A stretch of DNA of 64,000 nt from Eukaryota sp. GEM-RC1 (Eukaryota). The stretch spans positions 1,860,001 to 1,924,000 of the forward strand of contig JAUFOQ010000002.1 in the NCBI GenBank assembly GCA_040285855.1, read 5' to 3'. Below are positions 5,818-53,819 of the stretch, in pieces. The notes beneath the pieces are model-generated. The model had not been told where the DNA came from, did no database searches, and saw nothing but the letters and a program-made list of their open reading frames with translations. A program made the position numbers and the translations under genes. Every line of letters begins with the position of its first letter. Position 1 is the first letter of the stretch.

Positions 5818-6480
5818 CTAACAAGAACAACCAGACTGACCATTGTTGTCATCCAATGAAGCTAGTGAGGTATCCTCTGCTGCTTCTTCGGTCCCATTAG
5901 CTATAAAATCGTCCAAAATTGTAGAAAAGAGTTCAGGTATCTGTGAGCCAGTTTTGGCGGAAGTTTCAAAGCATTTTGCATTGACCTGCTCTGTCACTTG
6001 AGAAACTGCTGATTTGGGCACCGCCCTAGTATGCCCTTCATCTAATAAGTCAACCTTTGTGGCACAAATGTAGACAGCGCAAGAAGGTTCATTAGACTGT
6101 AGTTGATTGATCCAAAACATTGTTCGGTCAAAAGTAGCTTTGTCTGTGACATCATAACAAACTATAGCAGCACGAGCTCCACGATAATAGATTCGGCTCA
6201 TGGCTTCGAAACGTTCAGATCCTGCTGTGTCCCAGATCTAAAAGTAAGAATATGGGAGAAAAGAACAAACACCAATTCTCAAGGTACGGTCACCTGCAGT
6301 GACAGCTTTGGCAGCGAAAGCAGCACCAATAGTCTAAGATAAGAGACGATTGAGACAAACAAGTTCGTAGTCGCTATCGAACTTTTCGTTGACGAAACGT
6401 CCGACTAGACAGGTTTTTCCAACAGCAGCACTGCCAAGAAGTACTATTTTAAGATCGACCTTTTGTGGTTGTGAAGACAT
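5818..6480 (-). CDS. RAB24: Rab GTPase, Rab24-like; introns 6334-6360 (27 nt) and 6238-6270 (33 nt)
   Basis: VDLKIVLLGSAAVGKT, TIGAAFAAK, IWDTAGSERFEAMSRIYYRGARAAIVCYD, ETSAK and a C-terminal CSC. Removing the GT-AG introns restores the frame. Confidence 0.9.
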
Positions 6481-7134
6481 TAAGAGAGAGGTGAAGTGAA
6501 GTGAAAATGGTTCTACTTAGTAGTTGAGTTCACTTCATTTTGAAGAACTCATTTAGAATCAATTTTAGCTCAGTACTTTTGGGTTTGCTACCATTAGTAG
6601 TGAGAGGCGTTCTGTACTACTCACAAAACCCTGAATAGTGACATATCCTCTCAGATTTTGACACTAATATTACTGTTTACTATTCGAGTAATTTGTACGT
6701 GAACATCAATTTAAGGCACATTTGTCATTTACAACCGAAATTATTTAATCAATCATTATTTATTTTCTGTTAATCTTTTGAAAATTTTAGGAAAATGATC
6801 ACTATTACAAGTATACACTCTATAAAATCGGATAAAATTGAGGTCATTCTGTATCACTAAATTGAAACCTAAAGATCTTCCACTTATTGAGCCTAGACGA
6901 AGCTGTCCCACACAATTGATCGAGGGACTAGTCAGAGAAAGGTTGTATGGTAAAGTTACATCTATATAATATGGGGAAATTTTGTAGAAACACTGTTTAG
7001 TCTGACAAACTACTGAAAATGTAAAAAAGGAATCAATTATATTGATAAAACTACATATGAAACAACGATCGTAAAGATCACAGAATTGGTTGAGTAAACC
7101 AAATAAAAATAGACTACTACTTGGATAACAATAA

Positions 7135-8383
7135 CTATGTCTTAGGAAAATTCAACAATTTGTGACAAACAAAGCATAAATGAAACCTGCTGTGGGCGCA
7201 ATGATTCAAACCAAGGTCATTAATGGTAATATTCTGCTTATTGTTCTTCTTTGTACCAATTGGACACGACAGTCGACAAGATTGAAAAGAGATTGACTTC
7301 AAATGAGTCATGGACGATTTCAAAGAAGCAATTTCCTGGAGATTAATTTGGGAATTTTCAAATGTTAGATGTAGAAGAAATTTAGGAAGACACGGAATTA
7401 AGGTAGTAATCCCAGTCACATTGTTTAAAGATAAAGACGATATGGACTCAGCAAAATAGGATAAACCGAAAGTTGATGGAATCGTGTTGGTGATCTGAGA
7501 ATATGATGTTGACAAGTCTGTACATGAAACGTCCTTGAAGTTGAGCATTAAATGATTCCTACGTAGAGTATTTTCTGGATTAATGCAAACGGAACCATGT
7601 ACACCAGTTTGACTGGAAATAAAGGAGGTTGTTAGAGAGTAAGTGCACGGAAACCGCAGAGATTCATCATCAATATCAACAACACACTGATTCAGATACA
7701 GAGAGTGAGAGAGGTAGACTCGAGGTATAAGAGAAGAAATGGTTTTCATGCAACAATCACAATGCATACGTGCAAGTTCCATGTCCAACTGTAAGATGGT
7801 CAATTGCTGCAAGGATGCTACTTCCTCAAGGAAATTGCATACTTTTTCATGAAGCTCTTTTGGATAGTCAAAAGCCAAATGCAAGTGTGTCAATTGCATA
7901 CGTTTTTCTTGTTTAAGGAAGATATCCAGGAAACCTACGGCAGAACCAACGAGTTTGACTTTCTGGGCATGGAAAGCAGAACAAGATTGCAACAATGGCA
8001 CTGACTTTAAGTCCAGTGTTATTGAGACAATGTTAGACAAATTAAAATCTTGGACTAGACGAAAATCCAGTCCAGAAGAAAGAACTCTGATTTGTTGAGA
8101 CATTGATGGCGAAAGTAGCGACAACAAGTTTAGAACATCAGAATCTAGAGCGTTAGTTGCAATAGGGAAAAAGCACAAAAAGCTTGTTCTGCAAGGTTGT
8201 ACAGGGCTTAATCTCCACCAAATCCACTTTTGATACTTGGTGAAGTGAGTTCATGGTGTGTTGGTGGATACCCCCCCATGTTATTGATACTAGACATGTT
8301 TTGAGAACAGTCGTGTATGTCATGAAGCGCAAACATTGGTTCAAACACAGTGTGTAGCGATCAATGATCTGGAATGATGACAT
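7135..8383 (-). pseudogene. Frameshifted copy of the LRR-like gene at 9186-10448
   Basis: Near-identical inverted copy, with a 23-bp deletion between TGCAAC microhomologies at about 8160. Confidence 0.8.
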
Positions 8384-9185
8384 GGTAGAAAGAAAATGTG
8401 AAATATTTTGAAATTTTCCAGTGTACTATCGAAATCCATTTTGCTGTCAGTCTCACATTGACGATTTCTTCAGACGTTTGTCCATTCATATTATTCTGCT
8501 GTAACATATACTATGGATGACAACAACGCGCAGAAGATCCATACATTTACGTACCAAGTGCATGTGTTAGGCATTACTAGGGAGTGGCAACCATTTACTG
8601 CAATACTCTTGCTACGTAATTTTGGACCGGAATAAACAATTGGTAGTGGTACAGTATATTTATGTATTTATATTAATGCCTTATATTGGACCAACAAAAT
8701 GAACAAAATCATTGATGCTCTAGGCTCTATAAGATGAGATTGAACTCACGATAATGAGACTAAAATGAAGGTGACACTATGGATAAATTAAAAGTGCATT
8801 AACAACATCCATCAAAGTGCCATAAGTGTCGATAAACTTCTAGTAAACTATAAACACTATAAAGGACAAACTAAAATTAAAAATCTCACTCAAAAGGGGC
8901 CAAATGCAACGTGAGTGCAACGCTCATTCCAAGTGTCTGAAATGGAATCACGGTTAAAATTGTGCCAATGCCTACGATATCTACGATATTACTAGTAAGT
9001 CACACTGTTCCCTGGATCAATTTTGAACAAAGACATCTTCAATCACGGAAAAATGTGAACACCAAATGGATGACAAACGATTCGTTAAAATCAGACGTCT
9101 TTCATAGAACATATTTGCAGCTCGCACAAAATGAAGTATTGTCAAAATTTCAAAATTTCAAAATATTTCACATTTTCTTTCTTCC

Positions 9186-10448
9186 ATGTCATCATTCCAG
9201 ATCATTGATCGCTACACACTGTGTTTGAACCAATGTTTCCGCTTCATGACATACACGACTGTTCTCAAAACATGTCTAGTATCCATAAAGGTCCACCAAC
9301 ACACCATGAACTCACTTCACCAAGTATCAAAAGTGGATTTGGTGGAGATTAAGCCCTGTACAACCTTGCAGAACAAGCTTCCCGTGCTTTTTCCCTATTG
9401 CAACCGCCTCCAAACGATTGATGCAACTAACGCTCTAGATTCTGATGTTCTAAACTTGTTGTTGCTACTTTCGCCATCAATGTCTCAACAAATCAGAGTT
9501 CTTTCTTCTGGACTGGATTTTCGTCTAGTCCAAGATTTTAATTTGTCTAACATTGTCTCAATAACATTGGACTTAAAGTCAGTGCCATTGTTGCAATCTT
9601 GTTCTGCTTTCCATGCCCAGAAAGTCAAACTCGTTGGTTCTGCCGTAGGTTTCCTGGATATCTTCCTTGAACAAGCAAAACGTATGCGATTGACACACTT
9701 GCATTTGACTTTTGACTATCCAAAAGAGCTTCATGAAAAAGTATGCAATTTCCTTGAGGAAGTGGCATCCTTGCAGCAATTGACCATCTTACAGTTGGAC
9801 ATGGAACTTGCACGTATGCATTGTGATTGTTGCATGAAAACCATTTCTTCTCTTATACCTCGAGTCTACCTCTCTCACTCTCTGTATCTGAATCAGTGTG
9901 TTGTTGATATTGATGATGAATCTCTGCGGTTTCCGTGCACTTACTCTCTAACAACCTCCTTTATTTCCAGTCAAACTGGTGTACATGGTTCCGTTTGCAT
10001 TAATCCAGAAAATACTCTACGTAGGAATCATTTAATGCTCAACTTCAAGGACGTTTCATGTACAGACTTGTCAACATCTTATTCTCAGATCACCAACACG
10101 ATTCCATCAACTTTCGGTTTATCCTATTTTGCTGAGTCCATATCGTCTTTATCTTTAAACAATGTGACTGGGATTACTACCTTAATTCCGTGTCTTCCTA
10201 AATTTCTTCTACATCTAACATTTGAAAATTCCCAAATTAATCTCCAGGAAATTGCTTCTTTGAAATCGTCCATGACTCATTTGAAGTCAATCTCTTTTCA
10301 ATCTTGTCGACTGTCGTGTCCAATTGGTACAAAGAAGAACAATAAGCAGAATATTACCATTAATGACCTTGGCCTGAATCATTGCACCCACAGCAGGTTT
10401 CATTTATGCTTTGTTTGTCGCAAGTTGTTGAATTTTCCTAAGAAATAG
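9186..10448 (+). CDS. Hypothetical 420-aa protein, weakly LRR/RNI-like
   Basis: Intact ORF with LxxLxL-type segments (LTHLHL, LTILQL, LSLNNVTGI, LKSISFQSC). Confidence 0.7.
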   Translation: MSSFQIIDRYTLCLNQCFRFMTYTTVLKTCLVSIKVHQHTMNSLHQVSKVDLVEIKPCTTLQNKLPVLFPYCNRLQTIDATNALDSDVLNLLLLLSPSMSQQIRVLSSGLDFRLVQDFNLSNIVSITLDLKSVPLLQSCSAFHAQKVKLVGSAVGFLDIFLEQAKRMRLTHLHLTFDYPKELHEKVCNFLEEVASLQQLTILQLDMELARMHCDCCMKTISSLIPRVYLSHSLYLNQCVVDIDDESLRFPCTYSLTTSFISSQTGVHGSVCINPENTLRRNHLMLNFKDVSCTDLSTSYSQITNTIPSTFGLSYFAESISSLSLNNVTGITTLIPCLPKFLLHLTFENSQINLQEIASLKSSMTHLKSISFQSCRLSCPIGTKKNNKQNITINDLGLNHCTHSRFHLCFVCRKLLNFPKK

Positions 10449-11202
10449 TTATTGTTATCCAAGTAGTCGTCTATTTTTGTTCATTTGGTTTTCTCAACCA
10501 ATTCTGTGATCTTTACGATCGTTGTTTCATATGTAGTTTTATAAATATATTTTTTTTTGGAAAATTTCTTTTTTACAGTAAGTTGTCATCCACGAACACT
10601 AAGTTTCAAACCAAGTAAACTATAGTAAGTTTTCGAAATGACCAACTGTAGATGGAACTTTACCACAAAATCCTTCTTGAGTACAGGGGTTCACCTCCTT
10701 ATTTGGGGAGAATTTCTCACATTCATAGATCAAAAGAACAGTAAAGAACAACACACATGTACTGAAAAGGTCAAACCATTGGAAAACAGAAATATCACAA
10801 AACTTCCATCACTCTAATTGACAACAAAGAATCAATTAATGACGAAAAAAACCACTCTAAGGAAATTTAAAGAAAAATAGTGTAAACAATATTTTATAAC
10901 CATACCTGAAACATTGACAAACTAGTTAAATACCCTATTTTAAGAACTGAAGAAAATAACGTGGGCAATTTGCTTACAATGTAAAAGTAGTGATTTTAAT
11001 ACACAAAAGACGAGTTAGACTCAGCCATTTAACAGGACAAATGGTCTCAAATACACTCAAAAAATTCTTTAATCGAAGAAGATCAAGTAAATGACTCGTC
11101 AAGAGATTCAGTTTGCAATAAAAGAAAACACAGCTCGAGAAACTGTAGCAAACGACTGTTCATATCCCGAAAGATCATTCAATTTTGAACTTGATAGAAA
11201 AT

Positions 11203-15803: not shown

Positions 15804-16447
15804 CAGTGTTGCGCCATTGTTTGCCATACACGTATGAACTCCCATACGTCCATACGCCCATACGCGTATGGCATTTTCTGTTTTGCCATACACATTTTGA
15901 CTACATGTATCTTTATTTGAACTTTTTCGATGCAGATACTCTAAGACGGGTTTTATCATAATGTAGATACATATACTTTATTGAAAACCAAACCTCCACA
16001 TCGTCCATCTCATTGGAAAAATTAGCACCATCAGGATACCATCTCTGCTTCCATTGCTTGATGTCTTTGATCTGAGTTTCATTGATTTGTATAGAAACCA
16101 TCTTTTGTGCGCTCCTTTATAAGTCTGTTTTTGTTTTTATCTCACTATTTTTGTTCTATAAAGTAAAAAAACTTCAAAAAGTCTGTTTCATCGTTTGTTG
16201 TGAATGAATGAGTACGTACTCAAACTCATTCACACGATTCTACAGAGCGTACTTGTTTTACTAATTTGATGACAAATTGCAGTGTAGGAGATGGTATTTA
16301 AACATAATGAAGTTAAGTGATGTTGGAAAGATTCTGCATATGGATAGATATGGCATGATGGCCATTGTCAGCCATTCTGCCATTCTACCATACGCCCATA
16401 CGCCCATACGCGTATGGCAAATTTATTTTGGTTATGGCGTAACACTG
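15804..16447. mobile_element. hAT-type MITE, family A
   Basis: TIR CAGTGTT(G/A)CGCCAT. 8-bp TSD ATAAATAA at 15796-15803 and 16448-16455. Subterminal CCATACG repeats. Second copy at 48251-48890. Confidence 0.93.
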
Positions 16448-18878: not shown

Positions 18879-19599
18879 TCATTTATAAGCAACATAAACT
18901 GTATGAAAAGATTCCAATGTCCACTGACTTTGATCATACCCACCATAAATTTCTATTCTACCGTAACCAGAACTCCTCAACCATCCTGCCACGTCATCCT
19001 TTTTACAGGGATACAGAGTCACAGAGTCTTGTTTCAGTATCTCCCCTTCAAGAGAAAGAGAAGTGGAGAAAGCAATAGAATCAGTTTTGTAAGAGTAGTG
19101 CCGGGAAAAAGACAGTTGTTTCCCTTCAAATGAACGTTGAATATCAGGAAGTTTGTCTGGTTTCTCAGCTAGGATTCTGTCATAATTAACTGTTGCAATG
19201 ACTAGACAGCTACCTGGATGAGTGACAATGTTGGTGTTTTTGATGAACTGATTTTGTTTGGATGATGGAACATGGGGAAGGGTATTACCAATGCAAATAA
19301 TGAGATCAAAAGTTCTGCCAGTGAATAGGGTGTCTATTTCTTCTAAAGAACCGAGACCAAGCTTGTAATCAGGAAGCAGAAGTGAACCCTGAACATGACG
19401 AATAAGGGCAGCGTCGTATTCTAACCCATATACATCAGCGTGTTCAGAAGCAAGAAATCGAAGCAAAGTTCCAGACCCAAAACCGACATCACAAATCTTT
19501 TTTATCACGAAAGTCTCCTACGATCGATCTTAGAAGAGACCTTTGGTGATCATTGATAGGGAAGATACATTCGAAATAGGGAATTAGTGAAGCGTACAT
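18879..19599 (-). CDS. Class I SAM-dependent methyltransferase, bacterial-like
   Basis: ICDVGFGSG, YGLEYD, FDLIICIGNTLPH and NYDRIL motifs. The N-terminus MYASLIPYFECIFP from ATG 19599 joins through a shift in a homopolymer at about 19500. Confidence 0.85.
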
Positions 19600-19782
19600 T
19601 GATTGCTACTAGTACAAGAAACCATGAGTAACTGGATATCTGGAAAAATCGACAATGATGCTCGTACAAATAGCTCAGTCAGCTGAGCCAACTCTCATAT
19701 CTAACAAACTTACTGTCATTTTTCAGTAAAACTAACACTATCTAATTATCGTTAATTGTTGTCAGTATACTGTATTTACTGT

Positions 19783-19929
19783 GAATTTCATTCCAAATGC
19801 ATAAGGGCATAACCCTTCACATTTTCATGATCTCATATAGAGCAAAACTCACAGTTTGAACAAATGTCTAAATTATTAGACAAATATCCTCATTCGCAAA
19901 GTCTTTTAAGACGAGCTAACTTCATAGAT
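19783..19929 (-). ncRNA. Candidate Fanzor omegaRNA scaffold
   Basis: Four hairpins lie just 3' of the stop codon, at 19901-19912, 19865-19882, 19840-19850 and 19803-19817. This is the position expected for TnpB/Fanzor omegaRNA. Confidence 0.55.
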
Positions 19930-22900
19930 TCAAGATTCCTGATCTTTCTGGTTTACGTGTGAGTCCTTGGGTACATCTTTCTTAGGCTTATTTGGACAAG
20001 TTGTTTTGTTATGTCCAGGTTGAAAACATATACCACACTTGTTAGGACCTCTGACAGTTGTTGGAGGACGTTTTGCTTTACCCTTACCCTTACTCACAGT
20101 CTTTTTCTTAGGAATCTGATCTGTATTCCCGCCATCCACGACAGGTTTTGTTTGAGATTTTGGTCTCTCGAGGATGGCAGGTCTACCTTGACCTTGAATG
20201 GTTCCATTTACAATATTGTAAATATTGATAGCAGAATTGAAGTCTCTATTCCAGAGGACATGACATTTAGCACATTCAACTAAGCCCCATGGTGAGACTT
20301 TGTTGTTCTTCAATCTTTCTTTCGAAAATGGCAACTGGTCAGTCCATTCTTCATCAAAGTTACGCTCCACAATATTGTCTAATTGATTGTGTTCCATAAT
20401 TTCCTTTTTTAATTCTTTCTCTTCCTTATGTAACTTCTTCTTCCAATGAGGATCAGTGACTTTTATCCTTTCAGGATTGGAGCAGATACCTTCGTTGTTT
20501 CTGGAAACACAAGCAGAGCAACATTTGCTGGTCTTAAATTCATCAACTAGGAACACTTTAAATCCAAATTTTCTCAATAATTTCCTAATTGAAGCACCTT
20601 TTACAGTAGATGCTTTACCTCTTCTTCGACGAAAAGCAGTGTCGTTCCAGTCTCCATACCCAACAACGACTTCATCTGGGTTTCCAAACTGGAGAGCAAA
20701 TCTGTGAAGCATGTTTTTCTCACTTCGTTCCTTTCTTGAATACTGTGTGAGACGATTCCTCCTAAACCACTTTTCTTCGTAAATTCCTTCTGTAGTTCTT
20801 TGATCAGTAGTGGGTGATCGTAGTAAAGAACAGGTAATTTCTTTACCAAGAACAAAAGCAGAATACAGAGTCAAATCACAAGATTTACTGCCTGGCGAGT
20901 TAGAGCCCCATTGATCTAAAATTTGTTGCCCATTTATGTCAATGCGTCTGCCATCTGGAATGTGAATAAATTGGGTAGAGTATTGTTGTAACCGTTCGGA
21001 TTCAGATAAACGGTGGAGATTGTATCGTCTTATTTTCTTCTCCAGCTTCCTCTTCTTTCTCTTAGCTCTTTTTCTTTCCTTCCTTGTTTTTTTCTTTTCC
21101 ATGGAGACTTTTTAATATCGGCATTGCGTTCCCCAGCAGTGTATCTGAATACTTTCCAATTATCACGATTTTTCAACTTGACAGTTGATGGTTTGTCAAT
21201 AGTAGGTGCGTCTTTCCAATCCTTCAATTCTTTTTTTAATTTTTTCAAGCTTCCTTTTTTCTTTGATGATTTTGGAGAAATCTTTCTTCTTCTGATTTTG
21301 GCTGATGTATCGAAACCTTCGATTTCCTTTTCCTCCTTAGATTTTAAAGAAGCACAATACATCAAATCATGCTGATTAGGATCAATCGCAACAATTCTTT
21401 TGGATTTCAAATTTAAGTTTTGAATTTCTGTGGAACTCAAAGAATCAATGTACCTTTCAGTAGCTGTGTAGTCAACAGCTTTCACCTTCTTATGAGGATT
21501 TCCTCTCCCATCAAGCAGATCTTTCCGCATCATCATTAAACTACAGCTAACTCCATCTGTAGAAATAGAACTGTATTTGAAGTCATGAGACAATGACTTT
21601 GGAAGAAACTTTGGTTTCAAAACTGAGTGCCAAATATCTTTTCGAACGTCATCAAAGCTACCTTTAATTTCTGATGCATGAACTTCTTTAAACCATGTAG
21701 TATCCAATCTGATATGATTAGGAATCAATGATTTTGTCAGAGGAAAAGGATTATTGGCAGTAACACCAGTACAAGAGTCCTCAACAAGACGTTTCAAATA
21801 CACTGCATGACTTAAGAATTTCAAAGGATCCACTTTTTCAGCATAATAGATTGTTTTTTCCATTTTACCTTCAAAAAAAGTAAACAAATAGTTAAAAAAT
21901 AGTAAACTCAGTCTAGAATTGGGATCAGGAAACACTTCAACATCTTGAAAATTAATTTTTGAAATTTCCCCATTAATGATCAACTGTCTGACTTCATTAA
22001 GCTTTGTACACAACTCTTGTCGTTGATTCTTATCACTAAGCTTGTTAAGTCTATCTTTTTCAGGGTAACCAAATTAAATACCTGAAAAACATATTCGTGA
22101 AAGTGTTCACTCATGTTAGTCTTGTAATTCGTTATAATTTCAGTAGCCATGTAATGCAATATACGAGATAAACGATGACTACTGGGAAACACAATCCTAT
22201 CAAGTCCAACGGAATCAGCAGCTAGTTCTAAACGAGGAATGTAATGCATCAAGAAATGTTGAGCAAACTGATTTTGAGTTGAGCCATCATTTGTGTTAGA
22301 AATTATGTTTGTTAACGATTCTTGTACAGTCCTAATATGATTCTGATTGTTTACAAGTTTGTAGTCCCTAATCGTCATCATAGACAACACTTGTTCCATT
22401 GATTTCAACGTAAAAAAATTCTTCCAGTCTGGCAATTCAATTTTGGAAGTTTGAATTTTAGTCCAAAGGTCAGGTTCAGGTTCACCACTCGCATCTTCAA
22501 TATTTTCTAATTTAACGGGAGGAGCAGTAGCATCGATAGACTCTGAATGTACATCTGTTTCTTCTTCAGTTGACTCATCTGTATCAGAATTCATTTCTTC
22601 CTTAACAGTTACATTTGGAACAGTAGCAGGCAGTAACTTCTGAATGTAACCTAAAATACCAGTATGTTGAAAATTATGAACAAAAAAATGTTTCAAAAAG
22701 AGAGTACTACGGACTCTTACTTGATGTGCTCTCTTAACACGAGATTCAATAAATTTAACCTTCGCTTTGGATACAACATTGTCTAGTCGTTTCTTAACCA
22801 CTTTCATTGGTGACTTTGAACGTAATGTTTGTTTTTTGGGATCCAATAGGTCAGCCAACAAGTATTCAATCAGAGGTAATTGTTGAATTGAGTTCATCAA

Positions 22901-25246
22901 CAATAGCGGTTTTGTCGATTCCTTGGCCCAAAGTTCATTTACTTTCTCCAAATTTCTTACAAATTTCTTTTTAATCTTATCGACCTTCACTTTAGGATTG
23001 TCTGGAACTAAAACATTAATACTGTCAATTATGCCATGCAAGTTTTGGACATTATTGACCAATTGAACTTCATCAGGATCAGAGTCATGATTAAGTTCTT
23101 CCAAGCGTTTGACAGTTTCATTTTTAGAAAAATTATTCATTTCAAGGAAAATGTGAACAACATTTTCCAAAAAACAACCACCAGTAAATACATAAAAATT
23201 CTTCAATACAGCATTCAAATCGAGGCTAAAAAAAGGACCAAAAGTTGTTTCCTTACACCATTTGTTGAACCAAAAGGGAATGTAGGGTTTAAATTCTGGA
23301 AAAGTAAACGTTGTATTGATTTTGAGGACTTGACAACGTGATACAAGAAAGGGAAATGTATCTAGAGTGAAAGTCATAACTCACAAACAATTGTGGACAA
23401 TGTTGAGTTATGAATGAAATGAAGTTTTTAAGCATACTGGATTCACTATCTGAAATATGTAAAGTACACAAATCCAAGTTTGAAGTATCAAAATTGCCAT
23501 GAGAAAATAAATGCTTTTCATTTAGCTCATTGTGATCAATGATCTGGATGGAAATTGATACAATCGGATCAACAGAAGAATCACGTTTAACTTCTAATTG
23601 ATCTTCAGCTTCACCTTCAACAGTTTCAATGTCATCATCATCTTCTTGAACAAGTTGAACATTTCTGCCATTAATTCTTTCTTTTTGGCAAAATCACTTT
23701 GAACATGAATTAAACAAAAAGTTGGTAGATTGTTCCAAAGTAGAGGGGATTTAAGAAAGTCTTGAATTTGTATTTCTTGTTCGATAGGCTCAGTGTGTAG
23801 ATTTACTTCCATATTAAGAATTTCTTCTTGAATTGGCGATGGATACGACATAATGGAGGCCTGTGATTTTGGTGGTAGTTCAGATGGAGGTAATTCAGAT
23901 GGTGATAGAGGTACTTCAGATGATTCCAATGTGGACATACGGCGGTGAGTCTTTCGTATTGGAGTGTCACCAGTTGAAACAAGGGAGCTGGTAGTTCTAA
24001 ATTTATTTTGTTGAATTAAAAGTGAACCTCGTGGTGATGGAATATCAGAAATTTTGGCTTTCCTTTTTTAGTGCTTAAACCAGTAGATGTTTTAGTGCTA
24101 GCAAGACGTGAACCTGTGAGAGGAATTGAAGTGGTTGGATGTTCTTTACCGGCAGGAGGTTGAATGGGTAACGATGGTACAATAGGAGCTACTGTGGTTT
24201 GACGTTGTTGTAGATAAAGTGTCCTTTGTTGAGACAAGACCTCCAGAATTTCTTCACGAAATATGTCTGCTTGAAAGAAAGAACTGTCCTTATCTAAACT
24301 CAACTGAGCCCGAAACCGTGCAATGGAGTCAGTCACAAGTTGAGTCAGATTAGGACAGAATGGCGGCATCATCGAAGCAACGGCAGTGGGGAAATCAACG
24401 GCAGTAGAGGGAGAAGCAACAGAAGTGGAGGCAGTGGAGGGAAAGAACTGTCCTTATCTAAACTCAACTGAGCCCGAAACCGTGCAATGGAGTCAGTCAC
24501 AAGTTGAGTCAGATTAGGACAGAATGGCGGCATCATCGAAGCAACGGCAGTGGGGAAATCAACGGCAGTAGAGGGAGAAGCAACAGAAGTGGAGGCAGTG
24601 GAGGGGAAAGAACTGTCCTTATCTAAACTCAACTGAGCCCGAAACCGTGCAATGGAGTCAGTCACAAGTTGAGTCAGATTAGGACAGAATGGCGGCATCA
24701 TCGAAGCAACGGCAGTGGGGAAATCAACGGCAGTAGAGGGAGAAGCAACAGAAGTGGAGGCAGTGGAGGGAAAGAACTGTCCTTATCTAAACTCAACTGA
24801 GCCCGAAACCGTGCAATGGAGTCAGTCACAAGTTGAGTCAGATTAGGACAGAATGGCGGCATCATCGAAGCAACGGCAGTGGGGAAATCAACGGCAGTAG
24901 AGGGAGAAGCAACAGAAGTGGAGGCAGTGGAGGGAAAGAACTGTCCTTATCTAAACTCAACTGAGCCCGAAACCGTGCAATGGAGTCAGTCACAAGTTGA
25001 GTCAGATTAGGACAGAATGGCGGCATCATCGAAGCAACGGCAGTGGGGAAATCAACGGCAGTAGAGGGAGAAGCAACAGAAGTGGAGGCAGTGGAGGGAA
25101 AGAACTGTCCTTATCTAAACTCAACTGAGCCCGAAACCGTGCAATGGAGTCAGTCACAAGTTGAGTCAGATTAGGACAGAATGGCGGCATCATCGAAATG
25201 TAGTTTTTTCGGATGTTTTCACTTCTTATTTTTGGACCCTTGCCAT
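19930..25246 (-). CDS. Fanzor RNA-guided endonuclease; about 1770 aa if the frameshifts are errors
   Basis: RuvC-I IVAIDPN (D at 21381-83), GYGDW, RuvC-II VDEFKTSKCCSAC (E at 20539-41), WGLVECAKC, RuvC-III WNRDFNSAINI (D at 20242-44). Upstream are FPLTKSLIPNHIRLDTT and STDGVSCS. The nuclease identity is strong; the full N-terminal extent is inferred. Confidence 0.9.
24277..25197. repeat. Tandem array of about 5.6 copies of a 164/165-bp unit
   Basis: TGGCGGCATCATCGAA recurs at 24361, 24525, 24690, 24854, 25018 and 25182. Units look identical apart from GGG versus GGGG. Confidence 0.97.
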
Positions 25247-25575: not shown

Positions 25576-26355
25576 TTAAACTGCTGACGTGTTTACTTCC
25601 ATACTAGAACTACGAGCACAAGAACTACAAGGATCTTCATCACAGATGGAATCCCACCGCGTTAACCATTTATTAACCCTACAAAGACATTTAGGATCAG
25701 TATCTGCCACGTGGATATGGAAATCAAAACTGGTAAAGTCAAAGCTGTTGCTAGAATCTGTTGTCATTGGATAGTAAAAGCAGAAATACACTGACAAATC
25801 ACGGAGAGTCATAGCCAAAGAGTACATCCTTGCAAGTTGACTAAACTCCGACTGTGATTCAGAATCAAGCCAATCATTAAGACCAATATCACCCATTAGA
25901 TTGTGAAGATCTTCCAATGAGGGCTCTTGATTGGCAAAATAATCACGAAACGAGAGAATTCCGACTTGATCTAGTTTCGATTGCAACGAGGCCAGTCGTT
26001 GAAAGAACTCCTGGGATCTACTAAAGAGACTGTAAAGAAGAGAGTGTTGTTGGGGTCTAGTGAAAGAAAGGGAGTGTGAAGGGTGGCCGTTGATGAAGAA
26101 CTTTAGGTTGTTTCTGGGATGGTTTAATAAGTCGGATATAGCGGAATCTAAATGGGATATATTGCTCAGTTTGAGAGGGCAAAAGTGGGTTTCAGAATTG
26201 TGGAGAAGACAGAAAAAACACGATGAAGTGTTGTTTTCAGGAGATACAGAAAGCCATTTTGGTTTGACTTCGACACAATAGCGATGGTAGAGTGGATTCA
26301 GAGGTAAATTCAAGTTATTGTCAACGTGAAGAAGGACTTCAGATGATGTGATCAT
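25576..26355 (-). CDS. Inositol-pentakisphosphate 2-kinase (IPK1)-like, apparently 5'-truncated
   Basis: CVEVKPKW, CFFC, FCPL, PRNNLKFF, MTLRDLS and VADTDPK motifs. No N-terminal GEG loop seen. Confidence 0.75.
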   Translation of the reverse strand: MITSSEVLLHVDNNLNLPLNPLYHRYCVEVKPKWLSVSPENNTSSCFFCLLHNSETHFCPLKLSNISHLDSAISDLLNHPRNNLKFFINGHPSHSLSFTRPQQHSLLYSLFSRSQEFFQRLASLQSKLDQVGILSFRDYFANQEPSLEDLHNLMGDIGLNDWLDSESQSEFSQLARMYSLAMTLRDLSVYFCFYYPMTTDSSNSFDFTSFDFHIHVADTDPKCLCRVNKWLTRWDSICDEDPCSSCARSSSMEVNTSAV

Positions 26356-26437
26356 TGAAGATACAGTTGGAGGTATGTTTAAGCATCATTGACAACAAAC
26401 CAGATCTGAAGTAAATGGGTCAAAAGGCAAAATTATT

Positions 26438-28316
26438 GATTTCTCTGAAAGTTCACATTTCATTAGAGTTTGACTATAATCTTGACAAAAATGACTGTGC
26501 TCTTGACAAAACTGACTAGAATCTTGACAGCTTCTCTTTTTGCTAGAATCTTGACAGAACGGACTAGATTCTTGACAAGTTGCTTTCTGATCCATTTCAG
26601 TGATATCTTCATTTCTTCGTCACTGCTTCATTGTCTCCCTCTTTATGTTCTGTAACTGGGAGCTTCTGCTTTCGTTATCACATATACTTTAGTAGTTCAA
26701 ATTCTACAGTTCACTATTGCTCTAGTGCTCACAATCACAATCTTTCTTGAATTTCTTACATCTTTGACAATGACTTCTGCTATCATGTCCTTCCTGGCGA
26801 CACACTCTACATTTCCTTGCGGTTTTCTTCTTTTGAGTTCTCATCACTCTACCATTCTCCTCATGAACTTTTGGACCTTCGTATCGATGGGCATATCTTG
26901 CTAAACCCACATTGGCAGCCTCTTCTAACCGTACCTTGTCTGCAGCTGACTCAGTAGACCGCCATTGATTGAACAGTTCTTCAACAGGATTAGAAATTTG
27001 ACCTGATTCTTCTTCATCATCTAACCACCACTGTCGATGAAACATATCTTTGGAAAATCTTTGTGTACTTTTAATGCTGTGAATACATGGAATTCCAGTT
27101 ATTCTCTCAGTTCTACCTGAATATACTGAATCCACATGATTCGTTTGGCTAAAAGCAATAATTTGTAAAACCTTCAACAAAGCAAAAGATGACACGTGTC
27201 GAATTACGTTCACAAATAAAGGGGTGTTGATCAGTTCTCGGTCGACTCTCTGCTTATCAACATCAATATTTCTTCTTAAGTCGATTACTTGATGCTCCAT
27301 AGTAGCCATAACATTTTCCATAGCACTCTCCAAGTCTCTTTTGTACATTCGATCTCCGGATTTTAGTGCATTGTGGGCGGACTCGGCTCGATTGTTCGTG
27401 TAAGTTTCAAAGTGAGTGAATTGGTCAATATTGTAATAACAGAAACTTTCCTTCATATCGAACCAATTGTTAATTAAATAGATGAAGGCATCACCACATT
27501 CTCGGTCATTTTCATATTTGCCTGTCATCACGTCCGAATTCCAACAAAATTCTTCGACTGCTTCACTTTGAATTACGGAGTAAAAATGTTCCATAAATAT
27601 TTTCCATGCTGGATCAGAAATTCCTTTAGCGTTCTTAATTTGGATTAAATTTTGAACGATATGGAACAAGCATAAAACGTGACCGGATGTAGGAAACACT
27701 TTCCTGACAGCATTAATCAATGCCTTTTCTTTATCTGTAAGAAAAACTCCTTGATTAATGTTAAATACATCTTTAAATTGTTCCAGAGTCCAAAGGTAGT
27801 ATTCTTCAGTTTCTTTCGCCATAAAGACACATGCAGCACGGAACGATGAATTTAAACAAGTAAAACCAACCACATGAAACATTGGCATACCAAAAGTATT
27901 TGTCTTATAAGTACTGTCAAGACAGAACACATACCGAAATCTTCTGGCAATCGACAGTACCTCCCGGTTTACAATAAACAGGGCTTCAAGTCGGTTTTCG
28001 GCATCAGACTTAACTCGAAAGATGTACCCGTCCGCGTTTTTTCACCTTTATCACCGGCCCAATTTTGCAGAGAGTTAACAGCATCTTCATAGGATTCAAA
28101 GGACATCAAATTATTTGGAACTGGTGTTGTTGGATTGATTGTAGGGTCCTCCTCATTTAAGACGATGTTTTGATTTAAGCTCATATTTATGAATAATAAA
28201 GAGAGATATTTGAGGGGAAGTGAAAAAGAAGTTGTCAAGATTTTAGTCAATTCTGTCAAGATTATAGCAAAAGTGATTTCATTAATGTAAGATTCGGGAG
28301 GGACGAAGAACCAATC
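26438..28316 (-). mobile_element. Mutator-like element (MULE)
   Basis: 9-bp TSD AAAATTATT at 26429-26437 and 28317-28325. Termini GATT...AATC. Inverted subterminal (A)TCTTGACA repeats at 26479-26578 and 28234-28262. Confidence 0.92.
26722..28184 (-). CDS. MULE (FAR1-type) DDE transposase
   Basis: LDSTYKTN, LTDKEKAL, LCLFHI, TNNRAESAH, GIPCIH and a C-terminal CRVCRQEGHDSRSHC. ATG 28184 joins with +1 A at about 28040. Confidence 0.93.
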
Positions 28317-29256: not shown

Positions 29257-29697
29257 CAGTGTTTGAAAACCACCCGGGTGGAAATGAAAACCACCCGGGT
29301 GGCGTCTGGGTGGTACTGGGTGCATAATTTTGGTCTTACCATGATCTTCAATCCATGACTTCCTGAATACATACTTCCATGTTCAACCTGTCCTAAATAC
29401 AATTATTTTAACGGGAGTTACTTCCAGGGTCGGATAGGCTAATATCATCTTATTTATATAATTTGCAGAGTGTTTTTTATCCCAAACATGTATAAAGTTC
29501 TTCCTTGTTAGTTATTATATATCACACACTGCTAAAGTACTTTAAGTTTCATCGTATATGGTGTATAAAGTAGTTTTTGCACCAAAACTTATGTCTCGTT
29601 CTTTAATGCCACCCGGTGACCACCCGGGTGGAAATGAAAACCACCCAGTTCCACCCACCACCCGGGTGGCGTCCGGGTGGAAAATTTTCGAACACTG
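29257..29697. mobile_element. hAT-type MITE, family B
   Basis: TIR CAGTGTT(T/C)GAAAA. 8-bp TSD TTGGGGAG at 29249-29256 and 29698-29705. Palindromes CCACCCGGGTGG at 29270, 29291, 29620 and 29658. Confidence 0.93.
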
Positions 29698-31442: not shown

Positions 31443-31516
31443 TAAGTACAACTACATAAAGGACTATTGGACAGATGGTCTTTCGGTACAGGAACTAACT
31501 ACACCGACGACAATCA

Positions 31517-31649
31517 TTAGTCTCACTGAGACTAAATACTAGGCTCTTTTGGTTGTTGCAAAACCACTAATAGTCTCACTGAGACTACATGTGGTAGAGG
31601 ACAATTAGTCTCACTGAGACTAATGGTGAAAGTTGATAATTAGTCTCAC
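31517..31649. repeat. Cluster of spaced palindromes TTAGTCTCA-C-TGAGACTAA
   Basis: Copies at 31517-31535, 31571-31587 and 31605-31623, plus a half copy at 31640-31649. Confidence 0.9.
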
Positions 31650-36951: not shown

Positions 36952-37072
36952 CATAGCTGCACTACATCCGTCATCATGGGAATAAAGTGAATGTAGATTT
37001 GTGGTTGATATGGAGGGATTTGCTATCTTTGCAGGGATTGTGTATGTGAGAAATTTTCCTCTTTTCACCTCT

Positions 37073-37554
37073 ATGCTACCTATTGACGAAGTTCCCAAGC
37101 CTCTTAACAGGAACAAGTTCCAACGTGCTCCTCGTCTCCGCCACCCCATTGTTCCTGGATCTATTTTGATCCTTTTGGCCGGACGATTCCGTGGTAAGAG
37201 AGTTGTGTTCCTTAAGCAAATGGAATCCGGCCTCCTCCTTGTTACCGGTATGTCTTTCGATTCTTACTCATAAAAGGTCCCTATAAGGTCAATGGAGTTC
37301 CCCTCCGCCGCATCAATCAGGCTTTCGTTATGCCTACCTCGACTCATGTTGAGCTCCCTGCCATTGAATTGTCAAAGTATACTGATGAATATTTCAAGAA
37401 AGGAGGCGATTTGACTGAAGAAAGAATCGAGGACCAAAAGTCCGTCGATTCCCAGGTTTTGGCTGTTGTCAATGAAGTTCCTTATCTCAAGGATTATTTA
37501 CGCTGTGCTTTCACATTAAACAACGGAGATCATCCTCATAGAATCAGATTCTAA
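37073..37554 (+). CDS. RPL6: 60S ribosomal protein eL6; intron 37248-37276 (29 nt)
   Basis: [47 protein letters not shown]...YLKDYL...F.L..GDHPH. Confidence 0.95.
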
Positions 37555-48250: not shown

Positions 48251-48890
48251 CAGTGTTGCGCCATAATTGAAAATAAATTTGCCATACGCGTATGGGCGTA
48301 TGGACGTATGGTAGAATGGCAGAATGGCTGACAATGGCCATCAAGCCATTTCTAGCAGAATCTTTCCAACATCACTTAACTTCATTATGTTTAAATACCA
48401 TCTCCTACACTGCAATTTGTCATCAAATTAGTAGAACAAGTATGCTCTGTAGAATCGAGTGAAAGAGTTTGAGTACGTATTCTTTCATTCACAACAAACG
48501 ATGAAACAGACTTTTTTCACTTTGTAGAACTAATTTTAAAAAAAAAAGTGAGATAAGAACAAAAACAGACTTATAAAGGAACGCACAAAAACTGGATTCT
48601 ATACACATCAATGGAACTCAGATCAAAGACATCCAGCAATGGAAGCAGAGATGGTATCCTGATGGTGATAATTTTTCCAATGAGATGGATGATGTGGAGG
48701 TTTGGTTTTCAATAAAGTATATTTATCTACATAATTATAAACACGTCACAGAGTCTCTGTGTCGAAGAAGTTTCAAATACAGATACATGTAGTCAAAATG
48801 CGTATGGCAAAAACAGAAAATGCCATACGCGTATGGGCGTATGGACGTATGGGAGTCCATACGTGTATGGCAAACAATGGCGCAACACTG
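48251..48890. mobile_element. hAT-type MITE, family A (inverted copy of 15804-16447)
   Basis: TIR CAGTGTTGCGCCAT. 8-bp TSD CATTTTTT at 48243-48250 and 48891-48898. Confidence 0.95.
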
Positions 48891-51278: not shown

Positions 51279-53819
51279 ATGTTCAGTCCTGATAATCCTG
51301 TTCGTAGAGGTAACATTGGTCGCGGTGCCCGTGGTGCCAGTCGAGGACGTGGTCGTCGCTTAGGACTTAGAGGCCGTGGTGGTGGTGGTCCTCGTGATGT
51401 TGGCGTATGTTTCTTTGACTGATTCTTACAACAGTTTACCTATTTGCAAGATCAACTTGCAAGAAAAAATGTTGGTGAAACTCAACTTCTGACTAATTGT
51501 CACCAAATTCATGTATCTGATCAACCTCTTTGGGTTTATGCTCCTTCTTTTCCCGCTACCGTTACTGATGATCTTTTCCGTAGACGAATGGTGACCGAAA
51601 TGTGGGAAACGGCTTTTGGTAGCAAACATCAGATCCCATTTGGTGAGATCGTGTTTGTTTCGAATCTGATCTACACGTTGAAGCCCATTGAACAATTTCA
51701 CGATACCTCTTATGATGTTCGACACCACAACTCCCGTTTCAACATGGAAGTTACTTTTATCCGTCAAATCACAAACCGAACTCCCACAAGTATTGATGAA
51801 TCACAGCTCAATGAACAACTACATTCTTATTTGTTGCAATTAGCTCTCAGAAAATCGGACTTGGTTCATTTCCACTCCAACTACTATGACCGTGAACCCC
51901 GTACTCATGAACTTTCAGATGAGTTTGATATCTTACCCGCATGGGTACCCCGTTTGTTGTGGCGTTCTTCTGGTTGGATTCTAGAAGTCCATACTTATAA
52001 CAAGGTATTGTGCAAAATCAACATGCTTGATTCCCTTAAACAACGGAAAGCTCACTTCCAAGGACCTGAAGAACAAATCCACAATCAATTGCATGAAGAG
52101 GTAAAATGGGGAGTGTATTGGCTGTCTCACAGTCACAAGTTTGTTACGTTGGGCGGTATAGATTGGACTAAGACACCGTCATCAACCTTTGACAATAATG
52201 GAACTACTACTTCATTTGCTTCTTACTTCCAACAAGTATACAACGTACATCTCGAACCCAACCAACCTCTTGCTTATCGTTGGATCGGATATAGAGAAGA
52301 GTACGCTTACTACCCTATTCAAATTTTAAAAAAATCTGGAAACTTTTCTGAACCCCTACTTGAGATCATCAATCAACTCACCCAAACCAAGCCTGGCGAA
52401 ACTGTTCAGAGAATCAGAGAATTCTTTGAAGTAATGACCAAGCAGGTGTCTCAAAACAATCGTGCTCCAACCTCTCCCATGGATTTCTTGAAGAACTGGG
52501 GAATTCAGTTACCTAGTAACGCAGAACAGTCCTCTATTGTAGTTGACACCATTGCCCTCAAGCCATTCACCATTGATATTGGCTCAGAACGTTTCCCTTC
52601 TTCTGATGGATTCTTTGCACCCAAGTTAAGGAATATTCAGATTCCAAATCCTCAGCCTATCAACAATTGGGTCTATGTTTATCATGATGCTACAGAGGCT
52701 TTTGCTTTGAAGATGCTTGATTTTATCAAAAGTCGTATGGAACAATTGAAGATTAATGCTGGAGATCCTTTGGTTATCCTTGTACCTGGAAGAAACAGAT
52801 TCGACCAGCCCTTAGACAATGCTCTTGAGGGTAAAGCTCCTCCTCAGTTTGTCTTTGCTTGTGCCATTGACCAGGACAAGACCACTTATGATTTGTTTAA
52901 GAATTATTGCACCACTCGTGGAATTGTTTCACAGTACTTTGCTGAGTCTGAAGTTAAATCTAAACCTCAAGCTGTTATTGGATCTAACCTTGTTCTTCAA
53001 GCGCAGGCAAAACTTGGTGCCACTCTCTGGAATGTCGAACTTCCTCCTAAAGTTTTTGGTCCCAATGGATCCTTCCCCACTTTGATTCTGGGTATGGAGG
53101 TGTATTATGGTAAGCATACTGCTTCTTGTTTGGCTCTTGTAGGCATGTTTGTGTTCCACAACAAACTTTCTTGGTTCTCCAAAACTAAGGAATTGCCTCC
53201 TACTCAAGAAGTCTCTCAACTTGTTACTCCGTTGGTTGCGGAATGCCTCCAGCACTTCAATTCTATTAATGCTCCTGAACCCCGAACAGTGATAATCTAC
53301 AGAGATGGAGTTGATGAATATCAGTTTAACTTGGTACGAAGTCTAGAGCTTGAACCCGTCAAGCAAACCATTAAGGCGACTCACCACGAAGCTTGTATTG
53401 TCTTTAACATTGTCCAAAAGGGAGTCAACACAAAGTTCTTCTCTCCTAATACTAGAGATCTCAACCTGAGTGCTGGAACTGTTATCAGCTCTACTGTCAC
53501 CAGGGATCAGTCACTGTTTGGTCACGATTACTTTATACAATCTGGCATGACTGAAGTTGGAACCTCAAGTCCAGTTCATATTAATGTTCTTTACAATGAT
53601 CTTCCTCCTGAAGCTGGTGTCCAACCTTCTGATTTATATGATGTGACTTACTCTTTATCACATATGTACTACAACCAGGGTTTTGCCATTGATGTTCCTT
53701 GTGTTTGTCGCTATTCTCGTCGTTTGGCTGTTTTTATGTGTGAACACACCATTTCTACTGCCGAAACTCCTCTGATGCCTGTTCCAAGTCTGTTATTGGA
53801 CAAGCTTTATTATATCTAG
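51279..53819 (+). CDS. Argonaute family protein, PIWI-like; intron 51405-51434 (30 nt)
   Basis: RG-rich exon 1 (GRGARGASRGRGRR). PAZ region TPSSTF...SFASYFQQVY...QPL. MID region YDLFK...SQ and AKLG. PIWI region IIYRDGV, VQK and LSHMYYN...VPC. Confidence 0.93.

Follow-up and report, generated by a model that had tools for sequence, protein, structure and literature searches.

What a Fanzor does in its own genome is still an open question, and one gene of the protist Eukaryota sp. GEM-RC1 raises it together with a second one, namely what a nuclease of this kind carries when it is encoded in a protein about twice as long as its relatives. The gene lies on the minus strand, like its parts and neighbouring genes described below, of the window analysed here, a stretch of 64,000 nucleotides (nt) of contig JAUFOQ010000002.1 (GenBank assembly GCA_040285855.1, positions 1,860,001 to 1,924,000). 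An initial annotation, made from the sequence letters alone, described it as a potentially active giant Fanzor of about 1,770 amino acids (aa), of which roughly 800 aa formed an unexplained N-terminal extension. We find that this extension holds an exonuclease domain of the PolB (family B DNA polymerase) type, fused in frame to a nuclease of the Fanzor1 type, and that relatives of the gene add a 2A motif and an Ulp1-type protease to the same chain. The window copy itself is a damaged, deleted and exonuclease-dead member of this multi-copy family, and is less useful than its relatives.

The nuclease belongs to the Fanzor1 type and retains the full D/E/D triad; it resembles Fanzor1 proteins more than Fanzor2 or TnpB. 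Its gene is spread over six overlapping open reading frames (ORFs; 19930-21111, 21030-22073, 21980-23380, 23289-23693, 23594-24067 and 24016-24453), within which the WED/REC, RuvC and TNB zinc-finger domains occupy 20170..22813. The residues reported initially were all located, namely the STDGVSCS motif (21563-21540), the RuvC-I Asp (21383-81), the RuvC-II Glu (20541-39), the RuvC-III Asp (20244-42) and the CxxC pairs of the zinc finger (20520-09 and 20274-63); a GYGDW motif was found at 20664-47 and a Pfam match to the TNB domain (PF07282) was obtained with E 1.2e-8. The Glu adjoins the first CxxC, that is, the triad has the Fanzor1 form D...E...D with the Glu relocated beside the C4 zinc finger (IAIDPN / VDEFKTSKCCSAC / CAKC / WNRDFN), D-x-TS-xx-C4-RD being the Fanzor1 motif of Bao and Jurka 2013 (PMC3627910). 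In the profile and tree comparisons that the initial annotation had proposed, a profile of 104 Fanzor rows matched among PDB structures SpuFz1 (E 2e-115), PpFz1 (1e-112) and GtFz1 (4e-73) best, with no Fanzor2 structure among its eight matches, and a RuvC-core tree grouped the window protein with proteins named after GEM-RC1 and after a second protist, RCL, in a single clade (Shimodaira-Hasegawa-like approximate likelihood ratio test, SH-aLRT, 96) apart from 145 other Fanzor1 rows; the tree is a quick one of 156 rows and 192 columns, without bootstrap, from which 11 near-copies and P0191 were left out. An AlphaFold2 (AF2) model of the relative P0006 (predicted local distance difference test, pLDDT, 80.8; predicted template modelling score, pTM, 0.80) also found Fanzor1 structures best in Foldseek (E<=4e-16, versus 8e-3 for ApmFz2, 9b0l), with a template modelling (TM) score of 0.78 over SpuFz1. 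An NCBIfam scan returned matches to PolB and TnpB below cutoff only. By analogy with Fanzors of known activity, the window-type enzymes are predicted to cleave double-stranded DNA in an RNA-guided manner, dependent on a target-adjacent motif (TAM).

The nature of the extension is best seen together with the long relatives of the gene. A search with the C-terminal piece yielded four of them among 2,743 candidates, the best being P0001 (KAL0225525, 1,473 aa) of Eukaryota sp. TZLM3-RCL, which is Skoliomonas sp. RCL (PMC11316075); it carries both PF03104 and PF07282 and is colinear with the window from 23648 to 20140 at 30% identity. In the window a PolB-family (DEDDy-type) 3'-5' exonuclease domain, devoid of catalytic residues, occupies 22928..23740. 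PF03104 matched the window piece 23292-23693 with E 6.6e-7 and 29.4 bits (cutoff 23), and the relatives P0001 (E 5e-13), P0096 and P0203 with 49.4, 58.2 and 31.8 bits, respectively; direct comparison of the window exonuclease with the RCL-named copies by hhalign gave a probability of 98.7 and E 1.7e-16, and an atlas search with the exonuclease a score of 0.84, to be taken as a lead only. The fusion is visible without any repair of the sequence, as the ORF 21980-23380 contains the C-terminal half of the exonuclease and the N-terminus of the Fanzor in a single frame; the upstream ORFs do not form a gene of their own, an arrangement that the initial annotation had named as one which would overturn its view. 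In the P0006 model the first WED strand (beta1) is at residue 42 and the ExoIII Asp at residue 17; the strand starts about 24 aa after the Asp.

It could be argued that the exonuclease and protease belong to a host gene, either separate or chimeric (a broken PolB), into which a normal Fanzor was inserted and to which it was joined by annotation only. The relatives are indeed gene predictions, some with suspicious introns, and none of the 90% relatives compared spans the whole protein. However, the junction is in frame in the window itself and recurs in six full-length RCL-named copies from several contigs as well as in P0203/P0205, P0001 has no polymerase domain (PF00136 was found in neither P0001 nor P0022, and the Fanzor WED comes directly after ExoIII), and the flanks consist of unrelated host genes. 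We regard this explanation as extremely improbable and largely refuted already.

The family comprises two sets of close relatives. The RCL-named set consists of two clusters with ten records on six contigs, 85-94% identical to P0001, and includes unbroken fusions of 1,394-1,494 aa (P0001, P0005, P0022, P0025-27); six of the ten records keep the 2A motif, ExoI, ExoII, ExoIII and the RuvC triad, and the other four are truncated models, one of them with a degenerate 2A. The C-terminal piece of the window belongs to a 26-member 90% cluster, in which the 15 members listed are the window's own protein and 14 GEM-RC1-named proteins from at least seven contigs, with identities of 81-98% to the window piece. 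When the exonuclease piece was used as the query, three relatives were added out of 317 candidates, P0203, P0204 and P0205, which stand in clusters of 11, 6 and 1 and match the window with 93-97% identity across 412-601 aligned residues. Near-identical relatives are dispersed in multiple copies over several contigs. We also observed divergent subfamilies in the same two protists, 30-63% identical (P0130, P0028, P0057, P0046, P0037, P0177, P0202 and P0096), and P0022 has a precomputed Pfam match to PF26935 as well.

The relatives reveal the order of modules: a short leader, the 2A motif, an Ulp1-type protease in the window's subfamily, a linker, the exonuclease, the Fanzor1 and, in some members, a zinc knuckle, with a total length of about 1,680 aa. 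In P0203 and P0204 the 2A motif DGDIESNPGP is followed by an Ulp1/C48 protease, matched by PF02902 with 24.0 and 21.9 bits, respectively (cutoff 20.7); the atlas match of the relatives' protease scored 0.95-0.96, with SENP8-like proteins among the top matches. Its motif blocks HWG, FIDP and Q-ANDCG presumably contain the His-Asp-Cys triad, which we assigned by motif. P0205 (GEMRC1_002385) has in aa 1-150 a different protease-like N-terminus (HWG, FIDP, and DSG in place of DCG), followed by the same exonuclease and Fanzor, a sequence pattern which suggests module swapping inside the family. The motif D-[V/I]-E-x-N-P-G-P is present in seven of eight RCL-named N-termini (one reads NLGP) as well as in P0203 and P0204, a motif which on its own is insufficient for ribosome skipping (PMC3708506). 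A Met is found about 30 aa ahead of the 2A, in MKYSS in P0203 and in MKLS in most RCL-named copies, and is likely to be the native start, which would give a family protein of about 1,677 aa. The other end of the chain is formed in the window by a basic C-terminal tail (19930..20169), which includes a zinc knuckle of the CCHC type (20037-19996) and ends with the stop codon (19930-32); this tail is present in the window's subfamily and in P0202, the zf-CCHC_2 match in P0188 being weak (E 0.026, below cutoff), and both the knuckle and the protease are absent from the RCL-named copies. We consider the architecture of a 2A-led polyprotein with a PolB-type exonuclease, a Fanzor1 and an optional C48 protease to be well supported, to the point of near certainty.

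This arrangement appears to be narrowly distributed. Of 1.84 billion representatives searched with phmmer, 1,111 matched at E<=0.001; among the best 150 of them all but P0001 are at most 838 aa long, P0096 alone matches best in the exonuclease part, and the other 148 have no exonuclease match as their best stretch, while the remaining 961 could hold further fusions. Metagenome scans for related loci returned 35 pattern matches, none of which was confirmed, and a second scan returned none. Among the matches listed, the exonuclease-Fanzor fusion has so far been found only in skoliomonad protists. No natural fusion of a Fanzor with an exonuclease, a protease or a 2A motif was found in print in those parts of the literature that were compared (including 10.1101/2023.08.09.552727, PMC10530073, PMC6338049, 10.64898/2026.06.03.729735 and PMC11423790), although the supplementary tables of the Fanzor papers could list long members, and we regard the 2A-led polyprotein, in which a Fanzor1 is combined with a PolB-type exonuclease and optionally with a C48 protease, as a new form of Fanzor1. 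The giant-virus link, which the initial annotation had drawn from the core motifs, was not borne out: the closest relatives are named proteins from nuclear genomes of protists, and uL1 as well as host genes with introns are found in the window. The family may have an ancient viral origin, its deeper relatives being mostly unnamed.

The catalytic state of the exonuclease differs between the two sets. The window copy has in ExoI HVQ (23707-23699) where the RCL-named copies have DVE, in ExoII YDFHLDT (23384-23345) in place of YNxxxFD, with DT for FD, and in ExoIII KFVRN (22966-22952) aligned, with less certainty, to YCVND; LLMNSIQ had been considered as the ExoIII counterpart and was replaced by KFVRN. 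The four catalytic carboxylates of a DEDDy exonuclease are thus missing from the window copy. P0203 and P0204 share HVQ with the window, hence the loss predates the window copy, and P0205 shares the dead ExoII. ExoI and ExoII are intact in each of the eight RCL-named copies in which these motifs are covered, and also in P0096, a divergent RCL-named fragment only 36% identical to P0001; all three motifs are present in seven of the ten RCL-named records, the other three being truncated models. Retention of ExoI and ExoII at such a divergence suggests, as far as sequence conservation can tell, selection for catalysis, whereas the exonuclease of the window's subfamily would be at most a module for binding DNA ends.

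An alternative view is that the exonuclease was captured as a passenger, or serves to bind DNA without catalysis, and has no enzymatic part in the life cycle of the element. It is in keeping with this view that every member of the window's subfamily seen so far has lost catalytic residues, and that this subfamily nevertheless forms a cluster of 26 members, that the protease and the zinc knuckle are optional too, and that an exonuclease match is the best stretch in none of the other 148 listed Fanzor matches. On the other hand, the ExoI/ExoII carboxylates are kept between P0001 and P0096, and the domain itself is retained across subfamilies that are only 30% identical; we hold such a passenger or non-catalytic module to be unlikely, if still deserving of attention.

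If the exonuclease acts, its substrate would probably be an end made by the Fanzor, and the RNA for this reaction may be encoded next to the gene. The structured non-coding 3' flank (19690..19925) is a candidate omegaRNA scaffold and right end of the element: a flank sequence of 261 nt folds with z -3.55 (none of 200 shuffles as good), and 19890-19741 reaches z -6.0, the lowest of 128 background windows being -5.6 and five of them lying below -3.5. Rfam gave no useful match to the flank, only one chance match. Hairpins occur at both ends of the element, in this flank and in the tandem array at the 5' end (see below). Two stretches within the Fanzor coding region also fold better than shuffles on the minus strand, 20101-20280 (z -3.3 to -3.4) and 20501-20650 (z -3.95), which possibly reflects a longer RNA overlapping the end of the ORF.

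In the reading that we favour, with somewhat better than even confidence, the genes constitute a multi-copy Fanzor1 family with an exonuclease fused to the nuclease, in whose catalytically competent members the exonuclease trims the cut 3' end and the element is copied back. The Fanzor with an omegaRNA from its 3' flank would cut the empty donor site in the manner of SpuFz1, which cuts the non-target strand after nt 16-17 (PMC10432273); TnpB and Fanzor are thought to restore their elements by cutting empty sites (PMC13565253, PMC10432273). The TAM-side 3' end would be left with about 16 nt unmatched to the filled donor, which would need to be removed ahead of DNA synthesis, and the exonuclease, placed about 24 aa before the TAM-binding WED, could remove this tail in cis. 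In break repair in yeast, the proofreading activity of Pol delta degrades invading 3' ends and is able to remove tails of this kind (PMC9477423). The trimmed end would then allow the empty site to be refilled with a copy of the element. The leader peptide would be set free by the 2A, the Ulp1-type protease may strip SUMO- or NEDD8-like modifiers, and movement of the element would depend on a transposase provided in trans. For the trimming role in the relatives as such, which is drawn by analogy, our confidence is about even or slightly lower, and it is only tentatively that we go further and propose that skoliomonads possess an RNA-guided endo/exonuclease of natural origin, a Fanzor1 polyprotein with a 2A leader and an optional SUMO/NEDD8-type protease, in which an integral exonuclease similar to that of Pol delta processes the ends that the protein itself has cut and thereby drives homing.

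Several observations weigh against this reading. The chief objection is that the window's subfamily has spread at least as well without the catalytic residues of the exonuclease, and since this exonuclease-dead subfamily is highly amplified, exonuclease activity is not required for spread. A private exonuclease may also be redundant, if one can judge from yeast, where Rad1-Rad10 likewise removes tails (PMC9477423). The assignment to Pol delta is weak: the best PDB matches are SpuFz1 and, for the intact exonuclease domain, yeast Pol delta (E 4e-4), but phage and archaeal PolBs score close behind. The exonuclease domain never folded with confidence (the AF2 model of P0203 has pLDDT 32), and the sequences of the relatives come from gene models, in which a break could be concealed by a predicted intron (P0203 skips 19 aa and P0205 skips ExoI). 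In the single window copy, a search for terminal inverted repeats and target-site duplications gave only chance-level matches, none of them convincing. The trimming and homing mechanism as a whole is deduced from sequence and analogy.

Joining of a nuclease to an exonuclease could alternatively serve a natural knockout device, in which the exonuclease would degrade ends that could otherwise be religated, and whatever the guide matches (a rival element, a virus or an excision site of the element itself) would be lost by deletion instead of being repaired, as with engineered Cas9-TREX2. Engineered nuclease-exonuclease fusions raise both mutagenesis and deletion size (PMC11471210), and no transposase gene adjoins the Fanzor. 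We nonetheless find such a device improbable, for the recent dispersed multi-copy spread fits a selfish element, the known Fanzor1 guide is flanking host sequence (PMC10432273), and no guide array was seen.

The question of what the exonuclease does must be separated from that of the state of the window copy, which concerns a different axis. Outside the tandem array described below, the gene is interrupted by five single-base breaks, four in A-runs that are one base short and one with an extra base. The initial annotation had joined the ORF pieces by adding a base at each of these A-runs, and these four joins hold, three being crossed by close relatives: 24064-69 is read through by P0203/P0204/P0205 and 23682-86 by P0203/P0204, in both cases with no residues lost, and 21109-13 is crossed cleanly by P0181 and P0190 and, via a compensating shift in the next A-run, by two others. 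The fourth, 22056-60, is spanned only by the more distant P0130 (63%) and the RCL-named copies including P0001. The junction at 23230-23380, initially called ambiguous and read as either a shift or a tiny intron, is narrowed down to a single surplus base at about 23366-70, which is not part of a homopolymer and where three relatives read VSYDFH-LD-TFPF. Short GT-AG intron candidates exist near five of six junctions and were rejected, as the relatives cross without loss of residues; programmed frameshifting was rejected at three of the four A-runs, where the relatives read through, and may still apply at 22056-60, which only the more distant relatives span.

The 5' part of the copy is altered as well. 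A tandem array (24277..25197) consists of five full units (164, 165, 164, 164 and 164 bp) and a 100-bp partial one, identical save for one G-run; each unit combines about 97-100 bp of the family's 5' region (a long hairpin, an ATG and MMPPF...) with a spacer of 64-68 bp, and only the 165-bp unit keeps the reading frame. The 5' segment matches aa 1-31 of P0203, the hairpin folds with z -3.0 (1 of 200 shuffles as good), and the spacer has no further copy elsewhere in the window. The frame does not need the join made initially at 25229-33, as the first ATG of the array lies at 25193 and the relatives place the family start elsewhere. Next to the array, alignment to P0203 reveals a deletion junction (24270..24280), where DKDSSF is directly joined to FQADIF and aa 32-270 of P0203 (about 230-240 codons) are missing, including the likely start MKYSS, the 2A DGDIESNPGP and the Ulp1/C48 protease; in agreement with this, no C48 match was found in the window pieces by Pfam and no 2A motif at the locus in a six-frame scan. 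An S/P/T-rich linker of about 177 aa (S 14%, P 11%, T 10%), likely disordered, follows at 23741..24273 and contains the A-run 24064-69; the pieces 23597-24067 and 24019-24453 had no Pfam family match. With the Fanzor proper beginning at about 22813, the extension measures about 520 aa from the ATG at 24372, or about 790 aa on the assumption that translation covers the entire array, and it is made up of the array, the linker and the exonuclease domain.

Could every break, including the four G-runs of the array, be an assembly error, in which case a single active protein would be made from this copy, about 1,755 aa long with the ATG at 25193 as its start or about 1,480 aa with that at 24372? From the latter ATG to the stop there are six in-frame segments, 1,481 aa with X at the five breaks, and no stop in the 1,476 in-frame codons between them. 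Four of the five breaks sit in A-runs, P0188 and P0189 carry compensating indels at A-runs shared with the window, and the array units differ in nothing but G-run length. The relatives of the window piece are fragmented at many different points. Housekeeping genes of the window break likewise, as the initial annotation had noticed: the uL1 gene encodes residues 107-126 in frame 3 and residues 125-217 in frame 2, with the switch in a C-run, and the neighbouring methyltransferase and Mutator-like element (MULE) transposase genes change frame in A-runs. Because four breaks sit in A-runs and host genes break in the same way, most of the five are likely to be assembly errors. No homopolymer error, however, would produce the deletion of about 230-240 codons with the likely native start, the extra base at 23366-70 lies outside any run, and the five breaks fall within 4.35 kb, whereas host ORFs of 807, 944 and 798 aa have none, although the latter also contain fewer long runs (1-4 runs of at least six, versus 14 in the Fanzor gene). 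The explanation by assembly error alone is accordingly a possible but doubtful one, and an intact ORF in the window copy is equally doubtful. Of the single potentially active protein of about 1,770 aa proposed initially, the long frame stands at the level of the family; for the window copy it is questionable because the start, the 2A and the protease are deleted, one break is not in a homopolymer, and the first ATG of the sequence as read opens a peptide of 55 aa.

The element is tightly enclosed by its neighbours. On the right it is bounded by a gene for an S-adenosylmethionine (SAM) methyltransferase (18879..19599), with an A-run frame switch at about 19506, and upstream by one for an inositol-pentakisphosphate 2-kinase (25576..26385; PF06090, E 7e-29), which leaves about 380 bp and thus no room for a transposase gene beside the Fanzor; none was found by Pfam within or adjoining the element. 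Beyond the kinase gene lies a MULE transposon (26460-28280), with its own inverted repeats (26469-26586 / 28224-28272), a transposase region at 26722-28191 (PF10551, E 6e-27; ATG at about 28184, A-run switch near 28040) and a C-terminal CCHC knuckle. MULEs and Helitrons with Ulp1 genes and CCHC knuckles are known, and the MULE is a possible partner in trans, or a possible source of the knuckle or the protease.

Elsewhere the window contains an inverted duplication of a gene (7035-8417 / 9144-10552, 98% identical), one copy of which has a 23-bp deletion and a small insertion, a dispersed repeat of about 620 bp in opposite orientations (15804-16429 / 48270-48890) with terminal inverted repeats, resembling a miniature inverted-repeat transposable element (MITE), and clusters of small palindromic repeats (31516-31649 and 29276-29680; the folding window at 31501 has z -5.6). 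An unbroken ORF of 798 aa at 51423-53819 (minus strand) resembles, as we presume, an Argonaute/PIWI protein. Very short GT-AG introns (27, 33 and 29 nt) occur in the genes 5818-6480 (minus strand) and 37040-37554 (plus strand), which we take to be Rab-like and eL6-like, respectively.

The family matters in several respects. It extends the size range of Fanzors about two-fold, it shows a Fanzor polyprotein that includes a 2A motif and a C48 protease, and it offers a natural control and a direct test of what the exonuclease contributes, since both active sites are preserved in six records and one of the two is lost in a sister subfamily. It is also a natural template for editing tools that are now built by fusion. 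If the proposed function is true, it would be a single-chain natural counterpart of Cas9-TREX2 and direct evidence of Fanzors tuned for end-processing and homing.

Among known systems the closest are the Fanzor1 proteins SpuFz1 of Spizellomyces punctatus (8gkh), PpFz1 (9cf0) and GtFz1 (9cer), which share the RuvC D/E/D, the Glu beside the C4 zinc finger, the TDG and GxGDW motifs, the fold of P0006, the structured 3' flank and, as in Spu-1, multi-copy elements without an adjoining transposase (PMC10432273, PMC11423790). The present family, in contrast, is about twice as long (1,400-1,680 aa, versus at most 838 aa in the other 149 matches listed), adds the N-terminal exonuclease, the 2A, an optional Ulp1 protease and a C-terminal zinc knuckle, and showed no terminal inverted repeats. 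Fanzor1 genes are also borne by MuDR and Helitron2, eukaryotic DNA transposons, including non-autonomous ones (PMC3627910); unlike these, the window element has no transposase. With the proofreading (DEDDy) exonucleases of PolB enzymes such as yeast Pol delta (3iay) the family shares PF03104 and, in the RCL-named copies, ExoI DxE, ExoII NxxxFD and ExoIII YCxND, but it has no polymerase domain, is fused to a Fanzor, and in the window's subfamily has lost the catalytic residues. Non-LTR (long terminal repeat) retrotransposons likewise carry D-[V/I]-E-x-NPGP about 30 aa into the protein after a short leader (PMC3708506), and non-LTR ORFs with deubiquitinase domains have a ubiquitin-like-modifier protease nearby (PMC13405545); here, however, the polyprotein is that of a Fanzor, the protease is C48 and not OTU or Josephin, and no reverse transcriptase (RT) or APE domain was found by Pfam in P0001, P0022 or P0203. 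Finally, the engineered Cas9-TREX2 (Cas9TX), sbcB-Cas9 and T5exo-Cas12a/IscB (PMC11471210) also join an RNA-guided endonuclease to an exonuclease, whereas the skoliomonad family, known here from sequence alone, is natural, of the TnpB/Cas12 type, and has an exonuclease derived from PolB.

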